The position numbers and the translations under genes were made by a program. Positions 41,916 through 50,097 of a stretch of DNA of 64,000 nt are shown here, piece by piece; position 1 is the stretch's first letter; each line of letters begins with the position of its first letter. The DNA is taken from assembly GCA_964016885.1 (NCBI GenBank), contig OZ024741.1:213032001-213096000 (forward strand), given 5' to 3'. Source of the stretch: Eledone cirrhosa. Taxonomy: Eukaryota. The notes beneath the pieces are model-generated. The model saw nothing but the letters and a program-made list of their open reading frames with translations. It did not search any database and was not told where the DNA came from.

Positions 41916-43065
41916 TAAGTTGAGAGCAACAAGGTAGGTGTTTTTTCTAGACAAACCATGGAATTAACGTTTCCTTTCAACTTAACATCTAAATATTTGA
42001 CCATTTCCTATCAACATTAGAACTTATATTTATGTTATGTTATGTTTATTATCGAATATACATCGAACAGCTAATAACAGTTAATATCTATCGATCTGCC
42101 ACTTTAACGACACACTGTGTTATTATCAAGTCTGTGTAAATGGCCAATAAATCATTTTCATATCACTTTTTTCAAGATGTGATTTCAGATAACCAGCACT
42201 GCTTAGTTGACACACGAGGTCACTTATTGATTTAATATATTTTTCTTTTCGACTAATGTGTCACGATATATATATATATATATATATATATATATATATA
42301 TATATATATATATATATATATATATATATATAATATATATATATATATATATATATATATATATATATAATATATATATATATATATATATATATATATA
42401 TATAATATATATATATATATATATATATATATATATATAATATATATATATATATATATATATATATATATAATATATATATAATATATATATATATAAT
42501 ATATATATAATATATATATATATATATATATATATATATATATATATATATATATATATATATATATATATATATATATATATATATGTATATACACATA
42601 TATATATATATATATATATATATATACGTTATTCCGGGTTGAATCGGAGGTAACCACAGTAAGTAAGGTACTCAATACATAGCAGAGTATAACAGTTTTA
42701 ATATAGATGAGATTCTACAGGACTAGAACTGTTTCATTCATTAGAAATCATCTGGGGTGCAGTGCCTCTCTCTCCACACTGATTCTCCTTCTAAAGTCGT
42801 ACCTAAAGAAGGGAATAGATAGATAGATAGATAAATTTCTATTTATTTGCCACGAGGGCACAAAAGAAGGGGACATTTACACAGTGGGGGAGTTTACATA
42901 AATCGAGTAAAGAAAAAAGGAATAACAATAATAATATAACAATAAAAAGTCCTCAAAAGGGAGGGGGCGTGTTGGGGATTGCACATACCCCCGAAAAGTG
43001 TGCAACTCTTTTCGCGGGGGAAGCCCAGAGAGGAGGCGCTCCCCCTTTCCTCTTCACTTCTTCAC

Positions 43066-46000
43066 CTACAGAACAATGTAGAGAGAAGGCCCATTTACAC
43101 GGGCCATTCTCGCTTCTTTCACCCACCTTTCATAAAACTGTCTGGGACCAAGCACTTCTCTCTCCATCCTGATTCTTCTTCCGAAGTGGTATCGGAAGAA
43201 GTAAACCAGGTGATGGCCGGAGAGAAAGTCACCCGACCTCAGACCTTTCAGGCGCGTCCACCACACAACCTCTTTCATCATGGCTATTACGCACAGAAAG
43301 ACCGCCTCTGCTTCATTTCTGAAGGGAGGAGGCGGCTTGATGTTCACCACAGACTCGGCGGTTAATCGAATCGGCGCCACACGCGACAGCAGTCGTTCGA
43401 CGTAGCCCCACAGATCGGCAACGCCCGGGCAGTGTACCAGTGCATGCGCAACGGTTTCCTCGTCGCGCACGCATCTGGGACAGATCTTTTTCGCGGGATC
43501 CCTGCCCGGGCGCCCGTGTCTGTAGAGCTTTTCTCGAACGGGCAGAGCCCCCCGGTAACACTGCCAGGCTAGGGACCTCTGGAAGTTGTCCATGGGTCCC
43601 GGGCCGAAAGTTCTACCGAACAGGCTGGCCAGTTCGTCCTCCTCCATGCCTAGCGACTCTCCAAGGGTGTCGTCGCCCCTGCTAGCCACCAACCCTCTAT
43701 AGAATGTCGAGGTGGATTCTCCACTGACAGTCGGGTCCGCTTGCCAGATAGCCGTGAGCGCCTGGGCACACTCGGTGTGCCAGTTGCCCAGTTTTCTCGG
43801 TCTTTGCTTCACCCAGGATTGCAGTTCGGTGAGCGAGACGAGCTGTGGGAAGGCTCGCCTCACAGACGGGGCCCATACCGGCTGACCGTTGAGGAATACC
43901 TGTAGATGCCGTAGCCTCAATGCGTGCCTACGCATCAACAGCCACGGCATACCCAGCCCTCCTTTCGAAGGGTGCTGGCAGCAGATGGATCTCCTCACCA
44001 TGGGAGGCCGCTTCTTCCAGAGGAACTGGAAGAGCATGCGTTCCATGATGGTGAGCTTTTCCTTGGGGCAAGGCACGACGGTCAGGCGGTAGTAGATGAC
44101 GGACGCTATGTAAGCGTTCGTCACCTCCGCCCGACCTTTCAGTGATAGTTTGCACTTGGCCCACTTCTGGGTCAGCGCAAACACCCTGCTCGTCACCTCG
44201 CCCCAATTCTTCTCCACCTGGAGGTCCGGTCCGAACCAGACCCCGAGCAGCTTCACCGGGCCCTCCGTCCACCGCCCGACGACACCGTCTAACGGCATCG
44301 GTTTGCCCCTCCACGTTCCGAGTTGCAAACCGACTGACTTGTCCTGGTTCAGCTTAGCCCCCGTCAGCCTTTCGTATTCCTCCAGTAGGGTGGCGATCGC
44401 CCCGATTTCCGAGGCGTCCGCCACCATTACTGTTACGTCGTCGGCATAGGCCGAGACCGCTTTGTGCAATCCCGGTTCCAGGGGTATGCCCCGCAGCAAC
44501 TCCAACTTCCGCAGCAGTGGCTCGAGAGTCAATACGTACAGAAGGGAGGAGAGGGGGCACCCCTGTCTGATGGATCGGGTGATTTGAAACGGCTCCGAGA
44601 GGTAGCCGTTTACTTTAATCCTAGAGTAGATGTTGCCACTGTGCATGGCAGAAATCCAGCCCCTGAAAACGGGTCCGAAGCCCGCCGCCGCTAGCACCGC
44701 ATCCAGGTAACCATGGTCGACCCTATCGAACGCCTTAGATTGATCCAAGTTGATCAGGGCCCCACCAAAGCCGGGTTCGTAGCCAACCCTCTCTATGATG
44801 TATCGCATGAGGTGGAGGTTGTCGTGAATGGACCTGGACGGGATAGCGCATGTCTGGTATGGACCGAAGTCCACATCCCCGTCCGGCCCCCCGCCACCTC
44901 CGAACAGTCGAGCAAAGTGCCTTTGAAAGGTCTCGCACATTCGCTCAGGTTCAAGGATCACCCGTCCATCCTGGTCTCGCAAAGACCGAATGGTGGATTT
45001 AATCCCACTCTTGGCTTCTGTCACGCGGGCCCAGCTAACAGCTTTGGTCCCCTCGTTTCCTAAAGCACGTATTTTACTTCGGACAACGCAGCCTTCGTGC
45101 TTCGCGTCAAAGAACTGGCTCAATGCCGTTCTCGTCGCTAACACTCTGGCTACGTCTCCGCTCCTAATCGCCTCTTCTAGTTTATCTGTTAACTCCCTTT
45201 CCCTCCTATTTCTATTCGCCGCTAGTTCCTTACTGTAACCTATCGAACTTACTCTAATCTCTCTCTTTAGAGATATCCACCACCTACTGTTGACGATCGC
45301 TCCCGTCAACCGCATCTTAACTAAGCTACTAATCCGGTTTCTGTAATCTTTCTTTGTCGGTAAGGACAAGTTCATCTTCCAGTAACCGGGACCCTGTCTA
45401 TGCGTTCTATCAAGGTTGACCACGCAGGTCACTAATTTGTGATCTGAATAGCCAACCATGATCAGTTCTGGACAACTAAATACGTCCCTATCCTTACTCT
45501 TAACCAAAAACCTATCTAGGTACGACCTAGATTGTCCACTGCGGTTTGCCCAGGTCCAGGTTGGCGCAGTTGGACAATCTAGTCGAAATCTATCGACCAG
45601 GTCGAATCGATCGAGTAACCCCTTGAGGCTGCTACACCCCCCTCTATCGGGACATGCCCCTGCATAGTCCCAACGCGCATCTAGGATTCCATTCCAGTCC
45701 CCCACTAAAAGCAGGGAACGCGACGTTCCTAGAAAAGTCTCCAGACGTTGGAAGAAGTCGGCTCTCTCCGCCCCGAAGGGAGCATAAAGACCGACCAGTC
45801 TGAAAGCCCCGCCTTCACCGCCTCCGACGTCCAGCACCAGTAATCGACCCCCCGGGTCCGAGTGAACAATCTGTACGTCGAGAGTCAGACGTTTATCCAG
45901 CAGTACGGCAACTCCCCCCCTCCCGCCTCCGGGTTGACAGAGAGATGCGTGCATCTCAAAGTCATCGAAGGCGGGCGCCAGCTGTCTCACGCTGCTGATC

Positions 46001-46122
46001 CGACTCTCGCAAACAACCATCACATCTATACTTTGTGACCTGAGGTCACTTAGAAGCTTTGCTTGCTTCCAAGCTGAGCCCAGGCCACGCGCGTTCAAAC
46101 AGCCAACTCTCAATTGATCTAT
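43066..46122 (-). CDS. Tx1 ORF2: APE endonuclease, RT with 128-codon in-frame deletion, C-terminal zinc motif
   Basis: 1015-aa open frame from TTG at 46113 with GCLNARG, GDWN, LDRF, SDH, DQSKAFD, RQGCPLS, YADD and CPRC..ETVAH..C. The start position aligned to copy 1's ATG reads ATA (46122-46120). Confidence 0.9.
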   Translation of the reverse strand: MDQLRVGCLNARGLGSAWKQAKLLSDLRSQSIDVMVVCESRISSVRQLAPAFDDFEMHASLCQPGGGRGGVAVLLDKRLTLDVQIVHSDPGGRLLVLDVGGGEGGAFRLVGLYAPFGAERADFFQRLETFLGTSRSLLLVGDWNGILDARWDYAGACPDRGGCSSLKGLLDRFDLVDRFRLDCPTAPTWTWANRSGQSRSYLDRFLVKSKDRDVFSCPELIMVGYSDHKLVTCVVNLDRTHRQGPGYWKMNLSLPTKKDYRNRISSLVKMRLTGAIVNSRWWISLKREIRVSSIGYSKELAANRNRRERELTDKLEEAIRSGDVARVLATRTALSQFFDAKHEGCVVRSKIRALGNEGTKAVSWARVTEAKSGIKSTIRSLRDQDGRVILEPERMCETFQRHFARLFGGGGGPDGDVDFGPYQTCAIPSRSIHDNLHLMRYIIERVGYEPGFGGALINLDQSKAFDRVDHGYLDAVLAAAGFGPVFRGWISAMHSGNIYSRIKVNGYLSEPFQITRSIRQGCPLSSLLYVLTLEPLLRKLELLRGIPLEPGLHKAVSAYADDVTVMVADASEIGAIATLLEEYERLTGAKLNQDKSVGLQLGTWRGKPMPLDGVVGRWTEGPVKLLGVWFGPDLQVEKNWGEVTSRVFALTQKWAKCKLSLKGRAEVTNAYIASVIYYRLTVVPCPKEKLTIMERMLFQFLWKKRPPMVRRSICCQHPSKGGLGMPWLLMRRHALRLRHLQVFLNGQPVWAPSVRRAFPQLVSLTELQSWVKQRPRKLGNWHTECAQALTAIWQADPTVSGESTSTFYRGLVASRGDDTLGESLGMEEDELASLFGRTFGPGPMDNFQRSLAWQCYRGALPVREKLYRHGRPGRDPAKKICPRCVRDEETVAHALVHCPGVADLWGYVERLLSRVAPIRLTAESVVNIKPPPPFRNEAEAVFLCVIAMMKEVVWWTRLKGLRSGDFLSGHHLVYFFRYHFGRRIRMEREVLGPRQFYERWVKEARMARVNGPSLYIVL

Positions 46123-49456: not shown

Positions 49457-49725
49457 AATCGAAATCCCCAATAGGAGGGAGGCGTTACAAATGGGTTGTT
49501 TTATTCCCCGTAGATAGAACAACTCTCAACTCCAGGAGCATGTTGTGCAAGTGCTCCCTTCTTCCTTTCGCTCTCTTCTTCAACCTACAGGTTTATTTAC
49601 AGAGAAGTCCCAATCACTCGGGCCATTTTCGCCACATTCACCCACCTTTCAGTAAATTTACTGGGGTGCAGTGCCTCTCTCTCCACACTGATTCTCCTTC
49701 TAAAATCGTACCTAAAGAAGGGAAT
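49457..49725 (-). mobile_element. Tx1 copy 3: short 3' fragment abutting (GATA)n
   Basis: Minus strand translates to FFRYDFRRRISVEREALHPSKFTERWVNVAKMARV, matching the ORF2 C-termini of copies 1 and 2, followed by 3'UTR homology (CTCCTGGAG..CCTATTGGGGA). Confidence 0.9.
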
Positions 49726-49816
49726 AGATAGATAGATAGATAGGTAGATAGATAGATAGATGGATGTGAGAAAGAGTCGGAAGGGAAAGAATGTGCTCTG
49801 TACTGAACTCTCACAT

Positions 49817-50097
49817 TCTTCTTCTTCTTCTTCTTCTTCTTCTTCTTCTTCTTCTTCTTCAGAGTGTCATTGTGGCTGAGTATTCAAACACTCCCTCCAG
49901 CGGGTCTTGTCAGAAGCAACCGTCTCCAACTGACCAGCCAACCTCATGGATGTTATCCAGCCATCTTGCTCGGGGTCTACCGTAGATCGGCAGGAGTCTC
50001 GGGCGTAGACCGTCTACGCCTGGGTCTCCTGCCCGTTGGTTTTACCCATAAGAGCAGTCCAGTGATTCTTTCTTGAGACATTCTGACGACATGCCAC
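49817..50097 (-). mobile_element. RTE-type LINE 3' fragment with (GAA)n tail
   Basis: HVVRMSQERI..KPTGRRP..GRPRARWLDNI..ASDKTRWR, a typical RTE C-terminus. Confidence 0.8.

Follow-up and report, generated by a model that had tools for sequence, protein, structure and literature searches.

Where does the DNA that lies between the two inverted arms of a retroelement foldback come from? The question is raised by a locus of Eledone cirrhosa (assembly GCA_964016885.1), in a stretch of 64,000 nucleotides (contig OZ024741.1, forward-strand positions 213,032,001 to 213,096,000; hereafter the window). Here two oppositely oriented ends of a Penelope-like element enclose a piece of host sequence that is itself interrupted by a Tx1-like LINE (long interspersed nuclear element). 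Comparisons at this locus and at others of the same family indicate that the capture of local DNA between such arms is real, recurrent and rare.

The structure lies in a (TA)n target, whose left side covers positions 42266-42626 and whose right side covers positions 48361-48485. Adjoining the left target is a long arm (42627-42752, minus strand), made up of a Penelope-like 3' end with its tail and a hammerhead core that is truncated on its 5' side, the first core letters being missing. The short arm on the right (48307-48364, plus strand), relative to which the long arm is inverted, has its hammerhead core letters complete and begins at GATTC, the common stop point of the family. The arms are unequal, with 126 bp including the tail on the left and ~57 bp on the right, and the left arm shows one difference from the reference copy L003, at which it carries the common variant.

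A sequence-only reading of this stretch had claimed that removal of the LINE (42834-48158) restores a copy of DNA found nearby, and this proved correct. Joined together, 42752-42833 and 48159-48308 form a near-identical copy of 49661-49879 (all read on the plus strand), a donor of 219 bp that begins 1.35 kb past the end of the copy. In the alignment, the sole substitution is at 42796 (G in the copy versus A in the donor), and the remaining differences are repeat lengths. The left part of the captured piece, which copies the donor from 49661, comprises an old Tx1-like fragment and (GATA)n. The right part, which aligns as far as donor position 49879, comprises (GATA)n, a unique core, (TTC)n and the tip of a repeat 3' end, with 11 TTC units in the copy versus 15 in the donor. 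In the donor, the GATA run is aata(gata)4ggta; in the copy, it is split by the LINE, with aata(gata)4 before it and (gata)6ggta after it, an arrangement that would fit the duplication of a target of at most 16 nt together with two additional units.

As had also been proposed, 49661-49879 can be designated the donor because the older LINE fragment and the right-hand repeat continue outward only there. The former (49451-49720, minus strand; 74% identical to the young LINE, tblastn E 3e-13, and 89% to locus L302) extends outward at the donor and not at the copy, and the right flank of the donor runs on into the (GAA)n-tailed 3' end of a dispersed repeat (49861-50095, minus strand), which has 70-90% matches in other loci. 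All three parts of the mosaic described earlier, namely the Tx1-like fragment, the GATA run with its unique core and the (TTC)n with a repeat tip, were recovered, but the assignment of that repeat to RTE gained no tblastn support: the reverse transcriptase (RT) open reading frame (ORF) at window positions 21830-23947 gave no match in the right donor flank, and 'RTE-like' is an unconfirmed name that we presume from a C-terminal motif only.

When up to 2 mismatches are allowed, the 39-mer unique core that separates the two microsatellites matches the 3.0-Gb assembly at exactly two places, namely in the copy and in the donor. The spacer is thus absent from family copies elsewhere in the assembly, and it has neither moved far nor multiplied, existing as two copies 1.35 kb apart. 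At the junctions, the copy overlaps the arms by 1 nt on the left (C) and 2 nt on the right (GA), within the 1-3 nt reported earlier. Copy, donor and arms are about equally young.

Centres of other foldbacks in the genome

The assembly contains 4,590 exact matches to a 40-letter pattern from the arm (~1.5 per Mb). We assembled a census of 280 loci, 248 of them distinct after imperfect de-duplication; this sample is enriched for odd flanks, and its counts are lower bounds on loci, as it was built from the matches listed for each pattern search. The 248 loci consist of 127 foldbacks, 102 solo arms or other arrangements, 12 continuing copies and 7 that were filtered out. One long arm with a tail is combined with one short arm in 123/127 foldbacks. 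Their centres are overlapping or flush in 37 cases, 1-11 nt long in 55, 12-29 nt in 18 and at least 30 nt in 17, such that 92/127 do not exceed 11 nt. The foldback, with two copies head-to-head in (TA)n joined by 0-11 nt, is the usual insertion form of the family. The head-to-head integration invoked by the sequence-only reading is how the family normally inserts, and nothing seen here gives the ribozyme a part in the capture.

Among the 17 centres of at least 30 nt, 11 derive from the element itself and were ruled out as captures on that ground; the other 6 do not. Seventeen loci whose spacers exceed 700 nt or include (TA)7 were excluded as nested or separate events. Eight of these were compared with outside DNA: L186 gave a 338-bp match at 92%, which is a repeat fragment, and L223 and L220 gave only 44-bp and 34-bp matches, respectively. 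At L186 (G000:C2:320096351-320106350), both arms end at the usual stop, and the 2-kb centre is made of microsatellites and a LINE fragment 92% like one 1.2 kb downstream. A 36-nt centre, with 22 nt from the arm (L114/L222), was dropped from the count by the filter. Elsewhere (G000:C1:83679773-83699021), about eleven tandem arm copies at ~1.07 kb spacing are closed by an inverted arm 7 kb on.

All six non-element centres of the long class match nearby DNA, five of them being spacers of 68-134 nt. The matches extend over 66 nt at 100% identity (L267, inverted, +233..298), 138 nt at 99.3% (L273, direct, -396..-533), 70 nt at 95.7% (L207, inverted, -1891..-1960) and 110 nt at 92.7% (L199, direct, +1021..1130). 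L255 harbours 35 nt at 100% (inverted, +904..938), of which 25 nt are copied again, together with arm-derived patches, and L202 a 29-nt microsatellite also found at -1.2 kb. Donors are thus located on either side and on either strand, 0.2-1.9 kb from the foldback, junction overlaps are ~1-4 nt where present, and similar captures occur on five contigs. For each of the six spacers, none of 99 other 10-kb loci scored as high; local matches, which the earlier reading had set against chance, far exceed these controls. The spacers of L207, L255, L267 and L273 have no match in the other fetched loci (374 loci, 1.99 Mb in total). From these comparisons, four of the five captures of 68-134 nt appear clean, and L199 is ambiguous. 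In L255 and L267, nothing appears to have been chewed back, because both arms end at the usual GATTC stop.

A less selected list, with flanks unconstrained beyond two letters, contains 26 foldbacks in its first 30 loci and 54 in 60 more. None of these 26 + 54 foldbacks has a centre of at least 30 nt; the window's own arm belongs to the same list. Long captures would thus represent approximately 1 in 80-100 foldbacks (~1%), and rough arithmetic, in which masked searches are scaled by their expected retention, gives ~15-25 GATTC-ending arms with long captures genome-wide.

Timing and template of the copying

We consider it probable that the copy between the arms was written in at integration, a cDNA end having primed on nearby chromosomal DNA before joining. 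In the mechanism we propose, both target strands would prime reverse transcription at different start sites, yielding one long and one short arm, and both cDNAs would stop near the 5' stem of the ribozyme. Microhomology would usually join the two cDNA 3' ends, with 0-11 nt of filler. In ~1% of cases, one of the ends would first pair over 1-4 nt with either strand of DNA no more than ~2 kb away and copy 35-220 nt of it before being joined to the other end. Host end-joining synthesis would be the first choice for the polymerase and the element's own RT the second, and the young Tx1-like LINE likely inserted into the copied (GATA)n thereafter. Of the templated bridging put forward by the sequence-only reading, the local donor has held up and the phenomenon recurs, and we infer its timing, at integration rather than in later gap filling. 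A wider claim is that the telomerase-related RT of the element, or a repair polymerase recruited by it, bridges two ribozyme-stopped cDNAs by copying DNA within ~2 kb, with thousands of centres recording this closing step and providing a steady source of small local duplications; we advance it tentatively, not being quite persuaded of it ourselves.

Short fillers and solo arms bear on the timing. The short centre fillers often derive from the arm itself, and such patchworks resemble products of polymerase-theta end joining. In solo arms, the 5' junction is directly bordered by an inverted copy of sequence from within 350 bp in 11/86 cases versus 20/602 control positions (Fisher p 0.0006, with positions that are not independent). 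Fold-backs of the target flank via self-complementary (TA)n are found at L026, L140, L197, L201, L247, L263 and L320; these arms are preceded by (TA)n together with the flank beyond it, repeated in inverted orientation, as though the end of the target had folded on itself before joining. L368 carries a 36-nt, 100% identical direct patch from 1.1 kb away. These patches suggest that, at insertion, local templates serve to extend the ends with no need of a palindrome, since solo arms have none to break.

The same outcome is predicted by the main rival account, in which a plain foldback inserted first, its palindromic centre broke and repair then copied nearby DNA. Perfect palindromes of 55-125 bp are plausible fragile sites, and the partner arm is shorter than usual in 3/5 other captures (L207, L199 and L273), which also fits the repair of a later break. 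Single-copy Pack-TIRs offer a precedent: 56.9% of Pack-TIRs lie no farther than 15 kb from the parent and 67.6% show microhomology, in the portion of the source consulted (PMC8277862). This order of events nevertheless seems unlikely to us: both arms keep the usual stop in L255 and L267, the left arm in the window ends in the normal range, local patches are also present on solo arms, which have no palindrome, and the copy, donor and arms in the window are about equally young. The filler might also have been copied from RNA, if the RT left the RNA of the element and jumped to a nascent transcript made nearby; nascent RNA is likewise local. For R2, template jumping has been described (PMC11371274), and for Penelope it has been proposed (PMC3846280), in the sections of these papers available to us. 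Donors on both sides and strands, one of them ~230 bp from the junction, and the repeated copying of one patch in L255 make an RNA template improbable, however. It is harder still to credit that a local duplication arose first and then received two separate Penelope insertions at its edges. The family is abundant, with ~1.5 exact matches per Mb, but the arms meet the copy at their 5' ends, sharing 1-2 nt with it, long and short arms are paired, (TA)n is present on the outside only, and the same pattern is seen at other loci. Similarly, although the region is rich in microsatellites and no junction-spanning read was seen, we attach very little weight to an assembly artefact, given that the copy differs from its donor by a substitution and by repeat lengths, that it contains a 5.3-kb LINE flanked on either side by target-like GATA and that similar captures occur on five contigs.

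Several further points weigh against copying at integration or limit the evidence for it. No empty site, intermediate allele or junction-spanning read was seen. The public runs contained at most 0.45 of the words, and their contigs (X11-X13, from one sample, and X1) were compared over 42627-43300, which covers the left junction; among the pieces listed, none bridges 42752 with 31 nt per side, which is uninformative either way. The control loci for the six spacers extended 5 kb on each side only. L199 is repetitive, another copy elsewhere being 90-91% identical, and at some variant sites it agrees with that copy and not with the local one; L207 differs from its donor at 3/70 sites, yet its arms are nearly unchanged; and L202 is weak, with 15 controls reaching 80% of its score. 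The short non-element centres (12-28 nt) match locally no better than controls in 6/7 cases, L275 being marginal. With a looser test (both orientations, any distance), patches were found at 19/81 solo arms versus 7-13/81 in controls, and some of them may be older foldbacks of other families. Finally, the search patterns favoured arms ending with GATTC, and this stop point is thus over-counted; it is also present in the unselected first 30 loci.

The inner LINE and other inverted structures of the window

The young LINE in the copied (GATA)n (42834-48158, minus strand) has both ends present and carries Pfam Exo_endo_phos, RVT_1 and zf-RVT matches. Its ORF2 frame (43066-46185, minus strand) is 1039 residues long from stop to stop, and its ORF1 frame (46267-48036, minus strand), with 589 residues from stop to stop, has a CCHC-type motif by eye and no Pfam match. 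Leaving aside a 384-bp deletion at 44856, the LINE shows 99.2-99.8% identity to two full-length relatives. A 26-mer from its 3' end has 722 exact matches, and (GATA)n lies beside the 3' end in 24/25 copies. The Tx1-type features of two ORFs, endonuclease, RT, zinc motif and fixed repeat target are present; the name itself is our assumption, based on the two-ORF architecture (AP endonuclease, RT, zinc motif).

Insertion of the LINE after the capture would be the simplest order, and we prefer it because a capture that took in the LINE with its allele, 5.5 kb in all, would have 25 times the length of every other one seen. The succession proposed earlier, from donor mosaic to Penelope insertion with capture and then to LINE insertion, fits the sequence. 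That the capture created a new target for the LINE is true but minor, as (GATA)n is the habitual 3' neighbour of this LINE family and such repeats are common here. At L375, L376 and L295, young Tx1-like copies abut the ends of other copies across short GATA runs, a stacking in which the family inserts into its own junctions. An older, broken Tx1-like copy at window positions 31517-35484 is 70-80% identical to the young one and spans its missing 384 bp.

The window also contains other inverted structures. A second hammerhead-bearing foldback family is represented at 14386-15243, with a 32-nt piece from its own arm in the centre and a third arm in the next (TA)n. At 10744-11065, two pieces in opposite orientations, both matching the 3' end of the RT ORF at 21830-23947 to 89-92%, join at overlapping positions in a twin-priming-like inversion. 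Further inverted pairs beside (TA)n are found at 19217-19922, 21020-21180, 56744-58351 and 18954-19148; the inner stretches of the first three of these pairs have no match elsewhere in the window. Lastly, 29145-29202 gave a borderline tRNA-like Rfam match and is 93% identical to the inverted 17940-18107; it is probably a SINE (short interspersed nuclear element) head.

The Penelope-like family and known systems

In long copies of the family, outside the window, an ORF fragment located upstream of the arm on the same strand harbours YRDDG, a CxCX5C linker (CNCLNKETC in P0001 and CNCLNKEAC in L281) and a weak C-terminal GIY-YIG domain, for which the Pfam matches are below cut-off (E 0.018 and 0.005). 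Two cysteines are 8 residues apart between the GIY and YIG equivalents, and the fragment lacks its N-terminus. RVT_1 and GIY-YIG are also present on a minority of members among atlas neighbours, and (TA)n flanks the arms. The Hydra clade is defined by a CxCX5C linker before the endonuclease and by (TA)n targets, in the sections consulted of PMC8557442. The arms would thus fit the 3' ends of a Hydra-like, endonuclease-bearing Penelope element; we write Hydra-like rather than Hydra in view of the missing N-terminus and of the two cysteines, which bear on the CCHH motif, whose absence is also expected of the clade. A type I hammerhead can be drawn from the core letters and stems of the arm, with a constrained fold of -5.4 kcal/mol versus -7.1 for the lowest-energy alternative, and Rfam detected no hammerhead at gathering score in the arm. 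Many arms (L001-L090, L315-L374) stop at GATTC, the 5' strand of the first stem of the ribozyme, on both sides of the foldback, and the ribozyme fold may be what stops reverse transcription there.

The closure of the Penelope 5' junction and the origin of the inverted ends are stated as unresolved in the parts of PMC8557442 and PMC11167929 that we consulted. Thousands of young, near-identical foldbacks are available here, whose centres would record the closing step of Penelope insertion. Long/short asymmetry, a shared stop, arm-copied fillers and traceable local donors provide counts for comparison with in vitro and cell assays. Capture would also be a route to small germ-line local duplications, a rare one with probably tens of events.

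Earlier publications already describe inverted pLTRs, the capture of host DNA between them and locally templated L1 and R2 junctions, as far as the partial texts indicate. No report of local donors for Penelope foldback spacers was found in the literature searched, including PMC4209133, PMC13282606 and 10.64898/2026.07.22.740005; it comprised few subscription papers and no supplements, and an earlier description is possible. Known Penelope-like elements, in the portions of the reports consulted, have an inverted 5'-truncated copy and an optional tail (PMC8557442, PMC3846280, PMC11167929). Our family shares with them the head-to-head inverted ends, the one-sided tail, the (TA)n targets, a putative hammerhead motif in the terminal repeat and the C-terminal GIY-YIG, as well as, presumably, two reverse-transcription start sites bounding the tail, which have been demonstrated in vitro for another Penelope family. 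The tail is ~65-75 nt long here compared with 30-40 in the published elements, and the known junctions are palindromic or overlapping inverted, whereas spacers here are traced to a donor within 2 kb.

The Penelope elements of the rotifer Adineta vaga also have unrelated host sequence between element ends, host DNA being present between Penelope pLTRs or as unique spacers (PMC3846280). In the sections available, that capture is interpreted as trans mobilisation to new sites; target duplications are present and most pLTRs are in direct orientation. Here, in contrast, the donor is next door and the copy is at the 5'-5' junction. As far as the excerpts consulted show, three de novo L1 insertions have local genomic templates and three have flank inversions (PMC11702581), and R2 forms snap-back junctions (PMC11371274). 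The likeness is that, prior to joining, the 3' end of a cDNA or of the target serves as primer for additional synthesis, with itself or neighbouring DNA as template. However, those events come from cultured cells and other retroelement classes, and ours lie between two cDNA ends of a Penelope element in an animal genome assembly, with a piece of 219 bp and a reach of 1.9 kb. Pack-TIRs, to the extent covered by the same partial source (PMC8277862), resemble our captures by their local donor, short microhomology, single copy and inverted-repeat frame, but they are DNA transposons in which capture follows insertion and breakpoints lie inside the element, whereas here the breakpoints are at cDNA stop points.

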